The notes under the pieces were generated by a model. The model was not told where the DNA came from and did no database searches. It worked only from the letters and a program-made list of their open reading frames with translations. A stretch of DNA of 64,000 nt from Albugo candida. Its lineage: Eukaryota. Every line of letters starts with the position of its first letter. The first letter of the stretch is position 1. The stretch spans positions 186,001 through 250,000 of the forward strand of contig JBDOQK010000015.1 of the NCBI GenBank assembly GCA_040437565.1. Reading direction: 5' to 3'. A program made the translations under genes and the position numbers. This document shows, in pieces, positions 1,867 through 64,000 of the stretch.

Positions 1867-3414
1867 ATGCGCTACAAGATAAGCATCGTAGTAATGATCG
1901 TCCTAAGTACCTGTTTTGAGAGCACGCTTCTCAACATAGCTACTGATGTTGATGAGCAGAAAGGTGCTCCCACACATGAGTACCTATTTGGCAGAGATAT
2001 GATTGATTTTCTGCAGTATCAGGTTTGCCATACGCCAGACCTCAGCGGGAGCGTAGAAGATTCCGGATGTAACTATGAGACCGTAGATAAGGCCGTCTCC
2101 GAACACTTTCATCCACTATTAGAGGAATTATCTCAGCTACGTTTTTTTCGCTACTTTAAAGTGAATTTGGGAAAAGAATGTCCATTTTGGGTTGATGATG
2201 GCATGTGTTCCAGCATCGACTGTGCTGTTTGTGAATGCCCACAACATGAGATACCTCACACATGGTCTAAAGTGGAAAAAACCATTCTGGCGACTTTGAA
2301 ACCCAAAATAGAGACCAAAAAGTCGGATGGAACCACATCCGATGCTCTTGGTAAACCGTGTTCAGATCAAGCAGGAGAAAGCGCTCTCTCTTGGGTAAAC
2401 AAACACGATGCATTTTCTGGTGAAACCTACCAAGAATGGGAGGATGGAGACGAATCTGAAGTTTGGAGTGAGTCTGAAGATGACACTAACATGGTCTACA
2501 TCAATCTATTAGAGAATCCGGAGAGTTATACTGGATATAGTGGATACCAGGCTACACGGATTTGGGACGCAATTTATAAGGAAAACTGTTTTGTCCCTTC
2601 AGTAGGAATGTGCTTCGAAGAACGCGTGTACTACAAACTGATCAGTGGTCTACAAGCTTCCATCAACACTCACATTGCCTTGAAATACAAATATGGAGAG
2701 TCTTGGGGACCAAATCCTTCTTTGTATGTAGAACGCGTTGGAAAGCATCCTGAGAGATTGCACAACTTGTATTTTGTACACTTGTTCGTTATGAGAGCAC
2801 TCGGTAGATACCGAGATGAATTACTGCAGTATGATTTTTCTACTGGCGATGTAAAAGAAGACAAGCGTGTGGTGGAGATTCTGCGTCGTGTGGTTCTAGA
2901 AGAGAAGGAAAAAGCAGCTTGTCCCGTGGAAGGCCAATCTGTGCTAACGGGATTTGATGAGCAAGCTCTATTCCGAGTGAAGCGCGGTAAAATGAGCGCG
3001 GAGCAATATTTGGTTGCTCAATCAGAAAAGCGCCGCATTGAAAATCAATTTCGCGAGAAATTCAGAAATGTCACTCGAATTATGGATTGCGTGAGTTGTG
3101 AGAAGTGCCGGTTATGGGGGAAGCTTCAGATATTGGGACTAGGCACAGCAATCAAAATTCTTCTCGCTGAAGACATCAAACGACTTCCAAAACTACAACG
3201 TAATGAGATTATCGCTCTGATAAATGTTGCCAACAAACTTGCTCAGAGTATCAAAGGAGTAAAACTGCTTCGCCGACTCGAGCTTTTGGACACCCTCAAG
3301 ACGTTTGGGGTCATTGTTGGCATAGCAATCGCCTTCGTCGCATTGATCATTCTTTACAAGCGAAAGCGAGTAAAGCGATCTGAAAAGAGAAAGTCTAAAG
3401 AGAAGTCACAATAG
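1867..3414 (+). CDS. ERO1: ER oxidoreductin 1 with signal peptide and C-terminal TM helix
   Basis: FFRYFKVNL..ECPFW, LLENPESYTGYSG, MDCVSCEKCRLWGKLQ (CxxCxxC). First ATG is at 1867. Confidence 0.95.
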   Translation: MRYKISIVVMIVLSTCFESTLLNIATDVDEQKGAPTHEYLFGRDMIDFLQYQVCHTPDLSGSVEDSGCNYETVDKAVSEHFHPLLEELSQLRFFRYFKVNLGKECPFWVDDGMCSSIDCAVCECPQHEIPHTWSKVEKTILATLKPKIETKKSDGTTSDALGKPCSDQAGESALSWVNKHDAFSGETYQEWEDGDESEVWSESEDDTNMVYINLLENPESYTGYSGYQATRIWDAIYKENCFVPSVGMCFEERVYYKLISGLQASINTHIALKYKYGESWGPNPSLYVERVGKHPERLHNLYFVHLFVMRALGRYRDELLQYDFSTGDVKEDKRVVEILRRVVLEEKEKAACPVEGQSVLTGFDEQALFRVKRGKMSAEQYLVAQSEKRRIENQFREKFRNVTRIMDCVSCEKCRLWGKLQILGLGTAIKILLAEDIKRLPKLQRNEIIALINVANKLAQSIKGVKLLRRLELLDTLKTFGVIVGIAIAFVALIILYKRKRVKRSEKRKSKEKSQ

Positions 3415-3446
3415 TGTAAATCCTTTACACTATGGTAACGAGTTTA

Positions 3447-3471
3447 CACCGGTGGACATTTAAAATGGCCC
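3447..3471 (+). repeat. Terminal inverted repeat (Fanzor/guide-proximal end)
   Basis: CACCGGTGGACATTTAAAATGGCCC, preceded by TA. Confidence 0.93.
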
Positions 3472-3580
3472 AGCTAAAGTCGGCAAATCAAAGTCCCTCC
3501 GTCAGGCATTTCAGCCCATGTGTAAATTGTGATTTTATGCTGTCGATGCAACAGCACTGTCCGCCTCAGGCGGTGTTGCG
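3447..3580 (-). ncRNA. Putative Fanzor omegaRNA scaffold (5' boundary uncertain)
   Basis: Lies between the Fanzor 3' end and the element end. Hairpins at 3548-3579 and about 3504-3517; 7-bp complementarity between 3520-3526 and 3443-3449. Expression is not shown. Confidence 0.6.
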
Positions 3581-5486
3581 GCTCTACTCAGGTATGTCGG
3601 GCGGCTTCTGCCCGCCAGTGATTCTCTTGTAAGTCGCGCGGTGTTGATGGCTGAGTTGACATCTCTGTTCCATAGCTTATTGCACTTTTTGCAAGCCAAT
3701 AAACCATGTACTAAGCGGAGACGTCGCTCGTTTTCTGCCAGTTTCTTCTTGGGCTCTAAGCGAACTCGAAACTTCTCACACTTTGCATCTTCCTGCTGAC
3801 AGTGCGAACACTGACAACTCGTCCTGAACTCATCGACCAAGTAGACTTTGTAGCCCCCATTGCGAAGCAGATTGCGAAATCCCTTTCCTTTCGTTGGTTC
3901 TTTAAACTTCCGATGTTTCTTCTGTTCCGAGTCAACAATACCGATGACGACCTCTTCAGGCTTTTTTAATTTCTGAGCCAAGCGATGTAGCATTTTCTGT
4001 TCGGATTTGCGAGTGTTCCAGAACCTGTTCAGTTTCAGTTTGCGGTAGATTCGAGCTTTGTAGGAAGTTTCTATTTTGGAGTTGACCAGGAGCTTTGCCT
4101 GCACATATGCCTTGAATCCTTCAAACGACAAAGTTTTATGGTTGTAGACCGTCAAATCAGTCTCCCACTGTGTGATACTGCGTTCCTCGACATACTCGTG
4201 GTTCTTGGCGTTCTGTATGATCTGGTCGTATTTCTTCTTTTTGGTCTCTTGTCGGCGCTGATTCTGCGTGTATCTGAATTGTTCACTTGCGTCCTCATTG
4301 GCACAGTACAGTAGGTCGCTCATATTGGGATCGATGCCGATGACTTTGCGCTTCGAGAGCTCATCTATTTCGCTTCCCGTGATGTCATCAATGTACTGCT
4401 CTGGTTGCACTACTGCTTTCCTCTTCGGCGTCTTCTTACCATACAAATCACTCCTGATGAATAGTAAAGAAGCCGAAACGCCATCAGTGTCAATCATATT
4501 ATTGAACCGATACTTCTTCATAGCAAACTCTTTCTTGTTGACATGAAAGAAAGTGCCCCAAATCATGGCTTTGTTCCTGACGAGTTCTCCTGCTGTCAAG
4601 AGCTTCGACTTTGCTCCTTGATCCCACAATAGATGAACGAGAGTGGTTGTATCCAATGTGATATGCTTCGGAATCAGGCTGGTTCTCAGAGGACAGAAGC
4701 TTCGGGGTCTTCGATTCGCTTGTTCAACAAACGCTGTCATCTTCAGCATAGCAGGGTAATAGTCTTGTGGCTTGCACTGAATGTCGTAATAGATTAAAGT
4801 CTTCTCAAAGCGGCTCTTCGACGGGAGAATAATTTTCTTGTGATCACGAATCCATAAGTGGTAACACACATGCTATTTGAATGGCGAATTGTCGACACTC
4901 AATAGATCGTTTTTGATATCCCTCAGGGTCGGCGTCATTTTCCGAATCGATGCATCTCTTTCTCTATTGGTTTTACGAATCCGACGAATGCGGCTTTCTA
5001 GGTCATGTTTCTGCTATGCTGTGTTCACGTAGGATTCCACGTATTCAACATAATACGCCTTGATATTAGTCTCGAAAATGGTCACGACTTGAACCGCTGC
5101 ATAATCTAAGACAGTGCTCAGGTATTTGTAAGAGATTGCGGTGTGTTTTCGGGTAGCAATGGAGCAAAATGTTCATTGTAAAAAGCTGTCAGAGTGTTTC
5201 GCAAGGCTTGCATCTTTGCTGAAGGAGGCCGACCGAGCGGAGTCTGCTGGTAGACAGTTTTGAAGATCGTATCCACCAGCTTGAGGTCTACTTTGAGACT
5301 ATCATCGATTCGATGAATCAAATACAGCTTCAAGAAGAACAGAGATCTGCTGACTATCTTGTCGACAGTACAAACAGATGAGGTGATCGTTTCTCCTTTC
5401 GACTTGAGTTTGATGATTGAGGCCAGACTGGTCTTCAAAGATTTGTACTGGGGTAATCAGGGATCTGGTGGGTCTACAAATTCCAT
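3535..5486 (-). pseudogene. Fanzor1 (TnpB/Cas12-like RuvC nuclease), about 650 codons, disrupted in the N-terminal third
   Basis: RuvC-I VIGIDPN, RuvC-II VYLVDEFRTS, zinc finger CSHC...CKKC, RuvC-III WNRDVNSAIN. Reconstructed from ATG 5486 (MEFVDPPDP) through stops at 5457-5459, 5014-5016 and 4873-4875 and one frameshift near 5135. Confidence 0.9.
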
Positions 5487-5900
5487 ATGTTGTGTGTTTT
5501 TCTATATTGTTCCCCGGGGTTTTATTATCAGATTTGAAACGCACTTAGTTTTTCTGCAAATAATATCGAGGAAGCCGTTTAGGATCTTTTTGCTGATCTT
5601 TACTGCACCACGTGTGGTGATCTTTTGTGACGGCTTTGGCGATAGACAGCCACGGACGAGCCAGCTTTCCAGGAGTGTTTGCTCCGGGTATGAGGGTATA
5701 TGAAAAATATGTCCTTATATCCGGTATCAACTCTAGTAATTGGCGTTGCCTATCCGTGTCCTGATCCAGATCACCGAGCTAGACGCTAGAATGCTCGTCG
5801 AGACCAAGGATAGCAACAACTTTGTCACTAAGTTGGCGCTGTTCAGCAGCGTAAAGATCAGCCTTCGCTCTCATCTTATGCACAAGACATATATATATGT

Positions 5901-6933
5901 TTATGTTTGTTTATACTGCTTCGGCGACATGAGTAGAGTGGAATCGCGTGGTCTTCGCCTCTGAGGATATTCACGACGTCTATAAGCGTACCGAAAATAT
6001 TCTCGGTAATTTGATGGCTTGATCATGCTGATGACTCTCACTATGTCTGTACGAATACCCTGTATGTTGCGGGTGTGAGCTGTTGACATGTGATATTTGA
6101 ATTGATTAAACCACCCCTCTCTAGCGTTTGTCTGAGGGTTATAAGGCACACTGTTTAAGCCAGATGGTTCCCGAATCGGCTATCAAGGCACGAATAGAGT
6201 GACCTTTGTGAGCCCCGGCGTTGTCCATAAAAATAGATAGCCACGTGAACGGTTATCATTTATGAGTCTAGTCAAGAGAATGACCATTCTTTCTGTCGTT
6301 GGCTCCTTGGTCATACATTTCCCAACCCAACAAGCTGCGGCTTGTGATTGCCCCGACAAAAGTGTGTTTTGTGAATACCTGGTTGTTATTTGTGACCTGT
6401 ATGCATCGTTCACCCAAATCGCATCTGCTGTGTGCTCTATACATAAATGGCGTCAGCGAAGTTTCGTCAATGGATATGATTCGATCAATAGGATGTGCAT
6501 CCGTCAAACGGTAAAATGCTCTGAGTTGTTGACTTCAGTTCACTGGCTGCCTGTATCTTTGTCTGGGAAAATGACCATGACGCGTCCTTTTTCTTGTCAA
6601 ATTATTTTCCCTGTCGACTCGTGATAGGTGTCTTGCTGAAATATCTATCCTTGGAAAACGTGCTTGAATTGCACTCAACAGCTCTGTAGAAGATATAGTC
6701 TGATGAGTTCTGACATATTGAACCGCCCATGCGGCTTGCTCCTGTGTGATTTTGTAGGATATAGGATCACGGTTTTGACGCTTCAGAGAGTGAATATCAC
6801 GAAAACGACGCGTCCAACGTGTAAGTGAACGTTTTGGACAAGAAAAAGCCCTCGCGGTGACTTGCCGGTTGTGTGACTGATTCAAATAATGTTAAACAGC
6901 GGCAACTTTGTAATCCTCTGACTTATGCTTAAT
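5901..6933 (-). pseudogene. IS630/Tc1/mariner DD34E transposase, frameshifted
   Basis: Fragments KHKSEDYKVAAV*HYLN plus HTH region (6535-6933), IISIDET (D1), FMDNAGAH (D2 at 6223-6225) and VPYNPQTNARE (E at 6117-6119). D2 to E is 103 nt, i.e. 34 codons plus 1. Confidence 0.88.
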
Positions 6934-7092
6934 TACAACCTAGAATATACTGGCATTTTAACGGATTTCNNNNNNNNNNNNNNNNNNNNNNNNNNNNNNN
7001 NNNNNNNNNNNNNNNNNNNNNNNNNNNNNNNNNNNNNNNNNNNNNNNNNNNNNNNNNNNNNNNNNNNNNCTGGCATTTTAACGGATTTCACA

Positions 7093-7117
7093 GGGCCATT
7101 TTAAATATCCGCCGGTG
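7093..7117 (-). repeat. Terminal inverted repeat (transposase-proximal end)
   Basis: GGGCCATTTTAAATATCCGCCGGTG followed by TA. Its reverse complement matches 3447-3471 with 2 mismatches. Confidence 0.93.
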
Positions 7118-7149
7118 TAAAAGCAGTACTTCAACTTCAATTTAGAGCA

Positions 7150-9078
7150 ATGCGAGCAATTTCCCGCACGTGTTTACATTGCTCAGGCCCTATGAAAGCG
7201 AAGCCGCTACATCGCCATATCACCAAAGTTCTAAGCCCCTCCAAAGAGTATGTGAGAGTACCTTCGCATACGTATTGCAAGACTACTTTTAACGAGCTTT
7301 AGCAGTGTACTGCTAGATAATCCATATACCGGAGAGATATTAGCACGAATACCTTATCTCTCCAGAAACGAGGCTTTACACAAAATCGATAAAGCGATAA
7401 AGGCACAACGCGATTGGAAGCGTGTTTCTTTGCAGAAACGACAGTATCTTTGCCTGGAATGGATCAAGACTTTGGACAAAAATAGAGATAAAATTGCGTC
7501 TGAGATCACTCAGCAGATGGGGAAGCCTATTCAACAATCATATAATGAAATATGTGGAGCAATGGAAAGAACAAAGTGCGTGATTTAATGGATGCTAGGA
7601 ACTTTATTCATATCTCTTCATACTTTACGAATTAAGAATGATGGTGTATCTTTCGGATCAAGCACTTGGTACGGATACCTTCCCGGAAGAGAGTGGGATA
7701 TTTAGGCGCATTACACATGATCCGATTGGTGTTGTTTATGTCATTGTGAGTGTCATTATTTTATTGATGTACGAAGATGAACGCAGAGCCTTATTATTGT
7801 AGGCACCATGGAATTATCCTCTATTAACGGTAACGAATTCGATTATTCCAGCTATCCTTGCTGGTATGTGGACATCCGCTATGGAAAATATGTACAAAAT
7901 GCGGTGCACCATAACAGGAAATACGATCATTTTAAAGCATTCACCGAGAACACCCTTATGTGGGGACCAATTCGTCTGGACGCTTGAGGAGGCAGGATTT
8001 CCGAATCATATTATCCAACATGCCTTCACTGATCACGATGTTGCGGCTGATATTATTATCCACCCAGAAATTGCATCCGTAATTTTTACTGGTTCAGTAG
8101 AGGGGTACGCTTGGAAACAGTAAAGATAACTTGAACTGAGGCTGTGACTATCGCGTAGTGGGCATGCTGTTCAAAAATTGAACCCAGGAAAATTTATGGA
8201 TATGACGCTGGAGCTTGGTGGAAATGTAAGTATTCAAGCACGCAAGTTTTTCGTATCTTATCAATGTCGTCATCCCCAAGGATGCTGGATACGTTGCGTC
8301 CGATGCAGACGTCATTAGAGCGGTAGAAAGCCTTACCGATGGGGTATGCTACAATGCTGGTCAATCTTGTTGTGGTATCGAAAGAATCTATGTTCATTCC
8401 AACCACTATCAGCGATTCTTGGAGGAAGCAAAGGGATCGTTTGAGAATTATAATTTGGATGACCCACTCTATACATCTTGTACGCTTGGGCCAATGTCTT
8501 TGGCTACAGCACCGCAATCCCTGCAGGAGAAGGTGACTTGATCAAATTTCGTATAGTGCTACTCTTGATGACTGCGTTCATGTGCCAGGTCGAGGACGCT
8601 TTGACGAAAGGTGCTGCTTTGATATCCGGAGGAGGGCCGAAAACCGACCTAAAAGGAAAAGGCCGCTTTTTTTCTCCTACGTGTCTCGCTAGTTGCAACA
8701 ACACGATGAAGATCATGTGTGAAGAATCGTTCGGACCTATCGTCGGTGTCGAAGAAGTCTTTTCAGATGAAGAAGCTATCCAAAAGATAAACGACAGCAA
8801 GTACGGACTGACGAGCAGCATTTTCACAGCTTCCAAAGAGCGTGCACTAAAATTTGGCGAAGACCTTTCCTGTGGAACAGTTTACATGAATCGCTGCGAT
8901 ACTGTCGACCCTTTATTACCATGGTCCGGCCAAAAAGATTCTGGAAAAGGCATCAGCCTCTCCAAGTATGGATTCACTCGTTTCACCCGACTCAAAGCTG
9001 TACGTTTCTGTGAAGTGTTTCGGATAAAAGCATTTTTATGATGAAAGTTTTTTTTGTTAGTGGAATTTTTCTTTGTGA
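7150..9078 (+). CDS. Aldehyde dehydrogenase, multi-exon, possible mitochondrial presequence
   Basis: Exon motifs APWNYP, VIFTGSVEG, LELGG, NAGQSCCGIERIYVH, EESFGP and PWSGQKDSGKG. Exon ends are approximate. Confidence 0.9.
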
Positions 9079-9551: not shown

Positions 9552-12287
9552 CTAGGTATCCTGAAGTTGGGCTTTATGGGATTCAAAAGCTTGATTTAGC
9601 ACCATGAACAGCTCCTGGGCTTCAACTTGCTGCGCGATCGAGACATCACGCAGTTTGTCCGGATGAATAATTCGGATGATATTTCTACATGAAGAGCAAT
9701 CACTCACAAAGAAATGACATGTCCTGTGGTTGATAAGGGTAACAAACCTGTACGCTTTTTTCAAGGTATCATTCTCTGGCGAATGAGCGACCATTATCTG
9801 GTTTTCTCTCAGCGATTCCAGGGAAGAGATCTGATCAATTGTAAGAATCAATTGTATTAATCCTTTGCCATACGCCCATTTTTCAACGTGTCGATGCGTA
9901 TCGCCGCGAATAGCGTCAGCCTCCTGCGCTTCTTTCTTTTTCAACAGCTCCATCTCATGACGCTCACGAAGACGTGCTTGCTGGCGAATATGAAGTTCCG
10001 AATCTATTCCGCTGGATTGAGCGGCGTCAAAAGAGCCTGATCTAGCATCTTCCGCTGCAGTAACGGCGGACGCATTTTCAAAATTGTGATTGAACGTATT
10101 TCGATTTCGGCGGGTATCTTCGTCCTGAACATTGGCTTCCCTCTGTCCGAATGGCTTAAAATAGGTAGAATGTTGGTGTTGTGCCTGGAATTGCTGCTTA
10201 ACCTGTGAAAATCGGGTAGATTTCATGCTTGCGGGTCTTCGTCTACTCGTGCGCCTTTGTTGCTGCTTCTTCTTTCGTTCTCGTTCCTCTTGCGCAAGCT
10301 GTTCCCATTCTTTATCGTATTCTTCCTTTTGGCGGCTTTCAGCGGTAACTTTTTCTTCCTCTTTGCGGATATTCTCCTGATGCTTACGTGCACGTTTCTC
10401 CATGTATTTATTCATCCTGCTCTTACCCCTTTTTTCATGCGGAGAATCACGTCGAGAATCCTGGACCGATTCAGCGCCTTCATCTTCATCGCTTGAAGAA
10501 TTGGAATTTTCGGACACTTTACTATCCTTACTAAGAATCGCCGATTTTGAGCGTGATTTTAAAATATCGTCTGGATTTGGCGAACGATCTTGGTCGTTGC
10601 TCTCATCACTGGAACTGACTCCTCGTGAAACCTTGCTGATGTGAGACGCATGAACGCCATTCAACGATGGAGAGGATGGAGATGATGACAACGATGATTC
10701 CGCACGAGGCTTGATTTTCTCAAATAAGTGTCTCTGTTCGTCAGTCGGCGGTGGAGGAGGAGGAGGAGATGGTGGTGCTTCTTGATCCTCCGTTGCACAA
10801 TCTCTGGCACCAGAAAGGGAATGTGAAGACAAACGGTCATCACTGTCACTTCCAAACATGCTATCACTGGATTCGTCCTCTTTGCTCATCGTACTTAGTG
10901 GAATATGAAGTTTCGGGCGACGCGCAAGGTGTTCAAACTCGCTTCGAGCTGACGGCAAATTGGAGGATGAGGTCTCAAAAGAGGTAGCATTTTTAAAGGT
11001 TTTGTGTGTGCTGTTTTGTGGGGAGACATTTTTCTTGAATCGAAATGAGATTTTGTCGAAAAAATTGATGGAAGAACCTTTGCTTGGATGCCTTCTATAA
11101 GTATCCTCATGAATGTTTTTCTGTTGATCGTCGATTCCAGACTCGTTGGAAGCTACATGATTCTCGTTGTTCACTGATCGTTGCTCGGGATCTCGCGGGT
11201 GAGTACATCTTGGTAATTTGACTTCAAGGTTTTGGTCGAAATCAGAAGTATCCTGTTTATATATCGAATCCAGTTTCCTCTCCATAATCTCAATCATCTT
11301 TTGGCTCTCTTCAAGTTGGTGGTTATATCGAATATTCAAAGCTTCTGCGCGTTCACAGCGCAGCAAAAGATCCTGATACTCTTTTTTTTCTCTGGAATTC
11401 ATATTCAGAACTTTTGTTTTACGTTCTTGCTTCAGATTTGTAATTTGCATTCGCAGAGATTTAATTTTTTCGTCGTAAATTCTAGTTGATTGTACGAGCT
11501 TTGAATGCCAATCTTCCCGTTTCATAAGTTGTCTCGAGACCTCATCTTCCAAACATTTTACTTCCTTTTTGGCATTTTGTATCACATCTTCCTTTTTCTT
11601 TTCCATAACTGCAATTGTAGTATCACGTTCCTTGATGAGAGCTTCAATTTTCTCACTCGCCTTGATTAATTGTCTGTTCCTTTTTTCCACTGTCTTTTGA
11701 CAGTCCTTTAGACCCGTTTGTGCCTCGGCATTCGATTTTTCCGAACTTGCGAGTCGCATTTCAAGGTGCTGAATAGATTTGAATGCATCACCCAACTCTT
11801 TTTTCAATTTTTCAAGCTCGACTCTCTTCTGTACATGTCTTTCTTTCGCCTTCACTCTAAGAGCTTCCAATGAGTCGTTTTCATCATCAATTTCGAATAA
11901 ACCTCTCCTTCCAGCAGCCAAAAGGCTCTCATGATCGAAACGCTCGTCATTGGCGCTACTACGTGATATATCGGGATACTTATTCGGTAATGTATGCCTT
12001 CTAGATGAGTCAGTGGTCATGGAACTTGTGTTTTTTCTGCTTTTGCGACCAAATACGCGCTGTATCGCATGCATCTTGCTGGATGAAGAGCTTCTTGTCG
12101 TATCTGTCTTTTGCTGCTGATCCTTTTTCTCTTTCTGAATTTGCACAGTCATTGCAGAATCCGATCCCGAAGATGATGAAGAAAATAAGCTGCCTCGTTG
12201 CGTGGCGAACGCTTTGGACGCGCGCTTTCTCGCATCCAGATCAGAAATTGCGACTACATAAGATGCATGAGAACAAGAAAAGATCAA
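9552..12287 (-). CDS. Coiled-coil/low-complexity protein with C-terminal auxilin-like J domain
   Basis: C-terminal LKKAYR [intron] NIIRIIHPDKL...AQELFMVLNQAFE. The true start codon is uncertain. Confidence 0.7.
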   Translation of the reverse strand: MIFSCSHASYVVAISDLDARKRASKAFATQRGSLFSSSSSGSDSAMTVQIQKEKKDQQQKTDTTRSSSSSKMHAIQRVFGRKSRKNTSSMTTDSSRRHTLPNKYPDISRSSANDERFDHESLLAAGRRGLFEIDDENDSLEALRVKAKERHVQKRVELEKLKKELGDAFKSIQHLEMRLASSEKSNAEAQTGLKDCQKTVEKRNRQLIKASEKIEALIKERDTTIAVMEKKKEDVIQNAKKEVKCLEDEVSRQLMKREDWHSKLVQSTRIYDEKIKSLRMQITNLKQERKTKVLNMNSREKKEYQDLLLRCERAEALNIRYNHQLEESQKMIEIMERKLDSIYKQDTSDFDQNLEVKLPRCTHPRDPEQRSVNNENHVASNESGIDDQQKNIHEDTYRRHPSKGSSINFFDKISFRFKKNVSPQNSTHKTFKNATSFETSSSNLPSARSEFEHLARRPKLHIPLSTMSKEDESSDSMFGSDSDDRLSSHSLSGARDCATEDQEAPPSPPPPPPPTDEQRHLFEKIKPRAESSLSSSPSSPSLNGVHASHISKVSRGVSSSDESNDQDRSPNPDDILKSRSKSAILSKDSKVSENSNSSSDEDEGAESVQDSRRDSPHEKRGKSRMNKYMEKRARKHQENIRKEEEKVTAESRQKEEYDKEWEQLAQEERERKKKQQQRRTSRRRPASMKSTRFSQVKQQFQAQHQHSTYFKPFGQREANVQDEDTRRNRNTFNHNFENASAVTAAEDARSGSFDAAQSSGIDSELHIRQQARLRERHEMELLKKKEAQEADAIRGDTHRHVEKWAYGKGLIQLILTIDQISSLESLRENQIMVAHSPENDTLKKAYRFVTLINHRTCHFFVSDCSSCRNIIRIIHPDKLRDVSIAQQVEAQELFMVLNQAFESHKAQLQDT

Positions 12288-12436
12288 CCATTATACTTTC
12301 ATGTCCACCTGTTTTGTTCCGCACTCTCTTGCTGTTTAAATGTGCTTCTCGCATGATGTCGAAGAATTATCCGCGGCAAAGGATAATTCTCAGACTCCAA
12401 GTTATCAGAGCGGGAATCAGATTCTGATCAGTCTTG

Positions 12437-62692: not shown

Positions 62693-64000
62693 TTGCCGAC
62701 GCGATCTCATACAAGAAAACTCAAAGATTCCGCCCCTCAGCGGACAGAATCACCTCGTCAGATAAAGCTCAACCGGAGCTTTGAAAGTGTCAGAAAACAG
62801 CAAAATTTGTGCACACATAGCACGAGTTGTGACGAGCCATCAGGCATTTTTGTTCCTCTATTTGACAAGATGGGGCAGACGTTGTGCGTAGAACCAGACA
62901 TGCGCACGGCTATGGCTCCATCTAATAGAATAGGCTCCAATTACACGCCGACGGCTCTGCAATTATGCATGCATAGAGGTCTAACATCGGCGGGAATATC
63001 TTTGAATAATGAATCTTTCAATCGGGGAGAGGTTCATGAGTGGTCTCAAGCGGTAATAGCTGATGAAGTTGAAGCTTCCGACAATCGATATATGAGGTAT
63101 CTGAACGAGCTGGATGAATATGATCATCTACAGTGGCAAATTCCGCCCCCTTCGTGTGACTTTATCGATTCTATTTTTCAAGCTTCAAAGAGGCACCTCA
63201 ATGTATTACTTGATCACCCAAAGACTTTCAATGATCAGCTTATTTCTACATTGAGGGTGGAGCTCGCGAGAAGATACACTCGCAGCACACGAAAGGCTGT
63301 TCTCAACTACATATTACTTCGTGATACAACGAGAAAACGACTTCAAATTTATCATGGATCTCCTTCGTCGATGGTGCTTCCAAACAATTTTGTCTGGAAT
63401 AATCTGACCGGAGACGAATACGGATGCCTGTCAGATCTAAAGGCTCTGATCTCAAGCACCCCGACCAAAGCACTTACTTCAAATTTGAGGCAGACTGAAT
63501 GCATGATAAAAGATTCTACTTCACCTCGTTCGCTGATAAATCTACNNNNNNNNNNNNNNNNNNNNNNNNNNNNNNNNNNNNNNNNNNNNNNNNNNNNNNN
63601 NNNNNNNNNNNNNNNNNNNNNNNNNNNNNNNNNNNNNNNNNNNNNTGGAATAATCTGACCGGAGACGAATACGGATGCCTGTCAGATCTAAAGGCTCTGA
63701 TCTCAAGCACCCCGACCAAAGCACTTACTTCAAATTTGAGGCAGACTGAATGCATGATAAAAGATTCTACTTCACCTCGTTCGCTGATAAATCTACTATG
63801 GATACTGTCAAAACCACAAGCGTATACTGTTCTGAAGACGTCATACGCTATGCTTGAGTCAATTCAGCTATTTGATTTACCATCATTAGAAGCACTTTCA
63901 AATTTTAACTCGTACGGCTCTCAATCGCAAGGCACACGGCCTTTGTACCTGCTTGGGTTCAAGGCGAAGCAAATTCATCACGCAGAAAAATCGAAAGAGA
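62693..64000 (+). CDS. N-terminal part of a large gene, probably an axonemal (inner-arm type) dynein heavy chain; runs off the window
   Basis: YTRSTRKAVLNYILLRDTTRKRLQI resembles the Y..S.KKAIVDY.L...E..RL.I motif of DNAH N-termini. No motor domain lies within the window. Confidence 0.5.

Follow-up and report, generated by a model that had tools for sequence, protein, structure and literature searches.

A decayed Tc1/mariner element with a Fanzor1 pseudogene and an omegaRNA-like 3′ end in Albugo candida

A stretch of 64,000 nucleotides (nt) from Albugo candida (GCA_040437565.1, contig JBDOQK010000015.1, positions 186,001 to 250,000; here called the window) contains, at window positions 3447-7117, a TA-flanked element of the Tc1/mariner (IS630) type with 24-nt terminal inverted repeats (TIRs), all genes of which lie on the minus strand. 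We are highly confident that this is a fixed, mutationally dead and structurally full-length copy of about 3.55 kb, which carries an RNA-guided nuclease module of the Fanzor1 family. Read along the minus strand, the left repeat (7117) is followed by the transposase, a spacer, the Fanzor gene, a tail and the right repeat (3447). An initial annotation of this locus had classified it as a Tc1/mariner element with Fanzor1 and an omegaRNA-type 3′ end, which our analysis upholds, both ends being on one molecule. The same annotation had called the element complete and a full mobilisation-plus-homing unit, and these descriptions have to be given up: the Fanzor gene has three premature stops and one frameshift, the transposase gene has no start codon, two stops and three frame changes, and the same lesions are found in the contigs of four sequencing runs.

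Termini, genes and lesions of the element

The 26-nt end pattern, consisting of TA and the 24 nt of the repeat, was found at two places in the 64 kb and no others, namely 3445-3470 (plus strand) and 7094-7119 (minus strand), and not once in 100 dinucleotide shuffles. What had been annotated as paired 25-bp repeats is thereby recovered as 24 nt plus TA, the two copies in the window differing at two positions, and a looser match of 45 nt (80%) lies inward of them. The right-end repeat, named in the minus-strand orientation of the element, occupies 3447-3470 (minus strand) and also forms the 3′ part of the omegaRNA-like scaffold described below; the transposase-side repeat, located by the same pattern search and shuffles, occupies 7094-7117 (plus strand). 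Both flanks are TA, as had been claimed, with TTTA before the element and TAAA after it, and the target-site duplications on the side of the Fanzor 3′ end (3445-3446) and on the transposase side (7118-7119) were assigned from the sequence and from the TA flanks of related elements (40 of 40, see below). Terminal inverted repeats and TA flanks, the features by which Tc1/mariner-IS630 elements are recognised, are both present, and the end-pattern search and tblastn found one copy of the element in the window.

Just outside the element end, directly past the stop codon of the neighbouring ERO1 gene, a 16-nt inverted repeat with a 3-nt spacer is found at 3405-3439. Its core, TA-GTG-TA / TA-CAC-TA, combines TA with the outermost three letters of the element ends. 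This repeat resembles a Tc1/mariner excision footprint, and could equally be a product of chance or a hairpin at the 3′ end of ERO1.

The assembly contains an artefact at 6950-7069, where 100 N (6970-7069) stand between two exact copies of a 20-mer; in the real sequence, 6949 is directly followed by 7070. For comparison we used Logan contigs of four public runs (X3, X4, X5 and X13, bearing four different coded organism labels) over window positions 3300-7300. The contigs of X3, X5 and X13, three of the four runs, pass from 6949 to 7070 and skip 120 positions, X4 being without a contig there. Both repeats are therefore on one molecule across the gap, as the initial annotation had supposed, and the true element measures about 3.55 kb. 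Once the 120 positions are subtracted, the distance from the repeat to the start codon is 64 nt, compared with 62 nt in the related locus L003. The element is present at this site in all four runs, with contigs that extend into both flanks.

The Fanzor1 pseudogene occupies 3535-5486 (minus strand). Intact Fanzor relatives are about 650-675 amino acids (aa) long, and tblastn with five of them traced the gene from 5486 to about 3520 in two frames. A codon walk placed its lesions, all on the minus strand, at a TGA in codon 10 (5457-5459), a frameshift between about 5137 and 5169, and TAG codons at 5014-5016 and 4873-4875. The premature stops stand where relatives have ordinary residues and are not surrounded by extra sequence, and are therefore not introns. 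The longest open frame that is left (3535-4872, minus strand, 445 aa) covers part of the WED/REC region, the RuvC domain and the zinc-finger TNB domain, and contains all of the motifs GIDPN, DEFRTS and NRDVN. It matches Pfam PF07282 (Cas12f1-like TNB domain) with 33.7 bits at a cutoff of 26.3 and, when searched with phmmer against PDB chains, SpuFz1 (8gkh, E 3.8e-36, residues 28-432), followed by PpFz1 of Parasitella (E 1.3e-30) and GtFz1 of Guillardia (E 3.4e-13). In an alignment of 26 sequences (the window frame and 25 relatives) the acidic residues D181, E348 and D404 are invariant, as are the cysteines C355, C358, C394 and C397. Residues D181, N183, E348 and D404 align with D383, N385, E541 and D606 of SpuFz1, which are described as coordinating two magnesium ions (PMC10432273).

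The fold points in the same direction. An AlphaFold model of the 445-aa fragment (pLDDT 72.3, pTM 0.59) had SpuFz1 as its top Foldseek match (8gkh, E 4.4e-17), followed by PpFz and GtFz (with 9cf0 at E 1.2e-15 and 9cer at E 8e-11), and much more weakly Cas12f, Fanzor2, Cas12j and TnpB; TM-scores were only 0.38-0.48, the model being a fragment with flexible parts. The co-oriented downstream RuvC/zinc-finger protein of the initial annotation, with its three acidic residues, is thus confirmed, and alignment to the TnpB/Fanzor RuvC fold, named beforehand as a test, put SpuFz1 first both by sequence and by Foldseek. The RuvC D/E/D residues, the C4 zinc finger of the TNB domain and the overall fold of Fanzor1 are all present; an intact frame of about 650 aa that includes the N-terminal REC/WED part is absent from the window copy. 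Judged by its reading frames, the gene is a pseudogene of the Fanzor1 family and not a functional member. Among the protein matches listed (120 of 1210) there was no homologue of at least 600 aa above 67% identity, the homologues at 81-99% identity were all truncated (262-404 aa), and the nearest named relatives, at 57-64%, came from the green alga Coccomyxa. A 404-aa product of the window frame is predicted in several assemblies (a cluster of 8).

Upstream, beyond a spacer of 414 bp between transposase stop and Fanzor start (5487-5900, minus strand), lies a pseudogene of an IS630/Tc1-type transposase (DDE_3, DD34E; 5901-6933, minus strand), delimited by tblastn and a codon walk. Its 118-aa fragment at 6535-6891 gave only sub-threshold helix-turn-helix matches, and a search for longer relatives returned four proteins. 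One of these, P0157, is intact (344 aa), is 74% identical to the N-terminal fragment, matches Pfam DDE_3 with 55 bits and has the triad D156, D238 and E273, in which D238 and E273 are separated by 34 residues; in tblastn it aligns to the minus strand from 6933 to about 5905. The window copy has lost the ATG, its start codon being ATT (6931-6933). Its premature stops are TAA (6892-6894) and TGA (6535-6537), and its frame changes three times from about 6300 to about 6170, all on the minus strand. The D, D and E motifs are retained, spread over three reading frames. The DD34E transposase of the initial annotation corresponds in the window to these scattered motifs, the spacing of 34 residues being that of P0157. 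Given the lesions in both genes, neither protein can be made from the window copy, in which at most the RNA end and the repeats persist as sequence.

These lesions are common to the contigs of the four runs. No differing letter was recorded at any of the five premature stops, all 30 bins being covered and a missing row in this comparison being no proof of identity. Run X13 differs from the window at 25 positions. It is changed at 3453 and 7107, where the window repeats disagree, and its own repeats are identical (26/26), so that the mismatches in the repeats of the window lineage are recent. In X13 a T is also inserted behind position 4584, and two other letters stand in place of 4407-4439 (33 nt); these changes fall inside the longest open Fanzor frame, which is therefore not conserved. 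Three positions of the tail (3453, 3480 and 3489) are altered in this run.

To place the element within its family, we used the Fanzor alignment to search giant-virus contigs and metagenomes, which gave 380 and 426 confirmed relatives, respectively, and analysed the best 80 of each, that is, 160 loci at 42-48% identity, some of them duplicated between the collections. A co-oriented transposase lies within 3 kb upstream in 75 of the 160 loci and is otherwise placed in five; no transposase match was obtained at the remaining 80, and at 53 of those the available sequence upstream was shorter than 3 kb. Repeats related to those of the window, with a TTTAAA core and up to 6 of 24 positions mismatched, were present at 99 of the 160 loci. 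All 40 unique complete elements have TA on both flanks, and a wider insertion site, T(T/A)TA before the element and TA(A/T)A after it, is shared by 38-40 of the 40 at its key positions. Such a target is palindromic and TTTAAA/TATATA-like, and TTTAAA is also found inside the repeat. The unique complete elements measure 2433-6300 bp, 14 of the 40 being too short (2.4-2.7 kb) for a transposase, and transposase and Fanzor are 331 to 2834 bp apart, with several loci near 455 bp and one at -6, where the matches overlap. The variable spacer and total length therefore describe a family with variable passenger genes between the core genes, plus Fanzor-only forms. Going by these comparisons, the window element fits the family in size, gene order, ends and target site.

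The omegaRNA-like tail

The Fanzor stop is separated from the end of the repeat by 88 nt, and nearly all of this tail (3447-3528, minus strand, 82 nt) matches a covariance model of a three-helix, omegaRNA-like scaffold, the end of which coincides with the terminus of the element. One helix forms a hairpin around a UGAAAU loop, a second joins an internal segment over a long range to the outer 7 nt of the TIR, and the third is an inner hairpin. Three shared elements were recognised by eye in the tails of relatives. A AATTTACA motif precedes a 4-bp hairpin that has a loop of the UGAAA type; a further segment, together with an A/U extension, pairs with the outer 7 nt of the repeat; and the inner part of the repeat supplies the 3′ arm of an inner hairpin. 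The guide of SpuFz1 is reported to be the 14-15 nt beyond the 3′ inverted repeat (PMC10432273), and by analogy the flanking DNA past the element end (3427-3446, minus strand) is the putative guide region here.

Covariation was counted at first in 26 of the 66 unique tails, those of the 75-79-nt class. In these, 89.3% of cells were paired, compared with 78.6% in shuffled and 27-49% in slid controls, and both sides had changed in 10 of 20 pairs. A covariance model of 78 positions, built from the same 26 giant-virus and metagenome tails with the window excluded, matched the window at 3447-3528 (minus strand) over its full length with 30.6 bits (E 2.8e-4), the sole match below E 1 on either strand of the 64 kb, and recovered 63 of 66 distinct relatives. 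Over 65 model matches, 88.1% of cells were paired (73.1% shuffled, 23-55% slid) and both sides had changed in 13 of 20 pairs; covariation was strongest in helices 1 and 3, neither of which involves the repeat, with 4/4 and 5/5 pairs changed on both sides. A permissive Rfam scan of 3000-7600 gave no matches. The second-best match of our model in the window, at 63173-63259 (13.6 bits, E 1.4), lacks both the TTTAAA core and a TA flank and was taken as chance.

A 3′-end omegaRNA that reaches the transposon terminus, as expected of Fanzor1, is thus indicated at the level of sequence and structure, and by analogy the position of the tail is in agreement with the experimentally defined SpuFz1 omegaRNA. 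The helix that pairs with the TIR keeps six of its seven pairs in the window, three of them changed on both sides relative to the consensus, and in these swaps the window lineage is the most extreme case seen among the sequences compared. We tentatively propose, at somewhat less than even chances, that across the family the helix between the outer 7 nt of the repeat and the internal scaffold segment co-varies, the end being doubly constrained as DNA bound by the transposase and as scaffold RNA of the Fanzor. If true, comparison of such lineages would reveal the co-evolution of transposase, DNA end and guide RNA after capture of the nuclease. The 78-position model, a by-product of this work, may outweigh the locus itself in usefulness.

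Two further structures were seen near such tails. RNAfold gives a 9-bp hairpin at 3529-3557 (minus strand), just upstream of the scaffold and overlapping the last Fanzor codons, and many relatives have, by eye, a hairpin of other sequence at the corresponding place. In the related locus L147, a second match to the guide-RNA model (3623-3706, 28.8 bits) lies near the opposite end of the same element and may be a nested or guide-only derivative.

Alternative explanations and proposed mechanism

Several points weigh against our interpretation. As a single sequence, the tail shows no significant structure (z -1.27, with 21 of 200 shuffles folding equally well), so that of the structured tail abutting the end described in the initial annotation, the location and the family-level fold stand and an individual fold does not. 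RNAalifold on a plain MAFFT alignment of 67 tails returned 0 pairs, owing to a hairpin whose register differs between two classes of sequence. The covariation counts rest on a structure named by eye, the E-values of the covariance model are rough, coming from a shortened calibration, and the alignment of the 65 matches was fitted to the model, so that its figures lean towards the structure. Transcription of the tail in this organism is an extrapolation from SpuFz1: none of the listed runs that contain the sequence is recorded as RNA, and the contigs of two runs labelled as RNA by guess look like genomic DNA. As to the element as a whole, no contig that skips it, which as an empty site would speak directly for mobility at this locus, was found among the four runs, an absence that does not prove that empty sites are lacking, and intact sister copies may exist elsewhere in the same genome.

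It is conceivable that the element is still active and that its stops and frameshifts are errors of assembly or sequencing, introns, or codons that are read through. The N-gap artefact nearby makes local errors thinkable, and the catalytic residues, zinc finger, inverted repeats and tail fold have all been kept. However, the contigs of four runs record no differing letter at the five premature stops, the stops stand at ordinary residues of relatives with no extra sequence that could be intronic, the lesions comprise each of the three stop codons as well as four frame changes, and the standard code gives a normal reading of the neighbouring ERO1 gene, which itself ends in TAG. We have accordingly rejected assembly error, introns and an alternative genetic code as causes of the stops on the basis of run contigs, relatives and the reading of ERO1, and regard an active element as scarcely credible. 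Slightly less remote, and still improbable, is that a part of the dead element has been put to use, either as a domesticated frame of 404-445 aa with RuvC and zinc finger and no N-terminal REC, or as an RNA end serving as a 'ghost' guide for a Fanzor encoded elsewhere. The predicted 404-aa product in several assemblies speaks for the former, but in X13 the 33-nt skip with two inserted letters and the 1-nt insertion shift the frame over about 48 codons, which is therefore not under purifying selection, and the N-terminal part that has been lost includes the REC residues which in SpuFz1 are described as reading the target-adjacent motif (PMC10432273). A ghost guide would suit a tail that still fits the family model, and Spizellomyces is reported to have guide-only 'ghost' loci (PMC10432273). 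On the other hand, the homologues listed (120 of 1210) include no intact close Fanzor that could act in trans, and three positions of the tail are changed in X13.

The pairing in the tail could also reflect subterminal repeats bound by the transposase at the DNA level, and not an RNA fold. Tc1/mariner elements can have internal repeats of their own ends, and one side of the long-range helix consists of the outer 7 nt of the repeat, which are also required for transposase recognition. Yet the arrangement is one-sided, the transposase end giving only a partial match of 11.1 bits that is the repeat itself; the helices that co-vary most, 1 and 3, lie off the repeat; and where an element has no room for a transposase, as in 14 of 40, the tail is still retained beside Fanzor. 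We consider this explanation of the tail very unlikely and retain that of a dead Tc1/mariner copy with a Fanzor1 module and an omegaRNA-like end.

In a live element of this kind, the DD34E transposase would bind the inverted repeats and insert the element by cut-and-paste into the TA within T(T/A)TA(A/T)A, the target pattern being taken from the family-level data and the transposition chemistry from the superfamily. The 3′ tail would give rise to an omegaRNA of about 80 nt with a scaffold that includes the inverted repeat, and the 3′ end of this RNA would run into flanking DNA and provide a guide of about 15 nt; the fold is backed by covariation, transcription and guide length being extrapolated from SpuFz1. 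Loaded with this RNA, Fanzor1 would cut a copy of the site that is free of the element, beside a target-adjacent motif containing TA, and repair from the occupied copy would restore the element, a cutting-and-repair step modelled on TnpB and Fanzor work. Little hinges on the window copy itself. The mariner-Fanzor1 family is best known from giant viruses and algae; the copy shows that it reached the chromosome of this eukaryote as well and there fell into decay. The copy also provides a clean anatomical example in which ends, TA, both genes and a guide-RNA scaffold lie within one 3.55-kb unit.

Genomic surroundings and known systems

The element is located between the ERO1 gene and an intron-containing aldehyde dehydrogenase gene. 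The second Atlas cluster of the ERO1 protein is most frequent in Oomycota, with a score of 0.81 that falls short of the 0.9 threshold, and gives no more than a lead. The latter (7256-9041, plus strand) is distributed over at least three open frames that match Pfam Aldedh at positions 13-96, 150-216 and 323-461, a split consistent with introns, and the surroundings are therefore those of an ordinary eukaryotic chromosome. Further along, a 912-aa open frame at 9552-12290 (minus strand) had no Pfam match at E ≤0.001.

Capture of Fanzor1 by Mariner elements, with TA duplications throughout, was described by Bao and Jurka in 2013 (Mob DNA 4:12, PMC3627910), whose elements PGv-1 (Phaeocystis globosa virus) and PUl-1 encode both a Mariner-like transposase and Fanzor1. 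Compared by description, these resemble the window element in having a single pair of TIRs, TA duplications and Fanzor1 behind a transposase, and differ from it in that the window copy is dead and lacks the third gene reported for PGv-1, a GIY-YIG nuclease. Fanzor-only derivatives with the same repeats are exemplified there by PUl-4, and here by the 14 short forms among 40 complete relatives. Mariner/Tc1 is one of the autonomous types of Fanzor-associated transposon named by Jiang et al. (2023, PMC10530073), who also describe a guide RNA that overlaps the inverted repeat.

The TnpB/omegaRNA systems of the IS200/IS605 family (e.g. ISDra2) are alike in combining a RuvC and zinc-finger nuclease with an RNA from the right end, and a role as homing endonuclease at vacant sites has been proposed for TnpB (PMC10690162). 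They differ in using a Y1 TnpA on single-stranded DNA, with no inverted repeats and no TA duplication, and the likeness of TnpB to the window protein is distant (Foldseek E 4.7e-4 to 8h1j). The closest solved structure is that of SpuFz1 from Spizellomyces punctatus (Saito et al. 2023, PMC10432273; PDB 8GKH), which has the same catalytic residues and whose element, Spu-1, has a TA duplication. Unlike the window element, Spu-1 is described as encoding no transposase, and identity between the proteins is only about 25%. The target-adjacent motif reported for SpuFz1 is CATA, whereas the flanks of the window family suggest T(T/A)TA.

Fanzor families A-C of a giant endogenous virus of Chlamydomonas reinhardtii, reported in a 2024 preprint (10.1101/2024.09.03.611062), are similar in that full-length copies have an IS630-Tc1-Mariner transposase, Fanzor1 and a right-end guide, and Fanzor-only and gutted derivatives are described as well. 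Those copies are reported as more than 99% identical to one another, expressed and viral, whereas the window holds a single decayed copy between housekeeping genes of the host. Mariner elements with transposase and Fanzor1 have thus been described since 2013 and the guide-RNA mechanism since 2023, and the window copy is new only as a dead member of this family.

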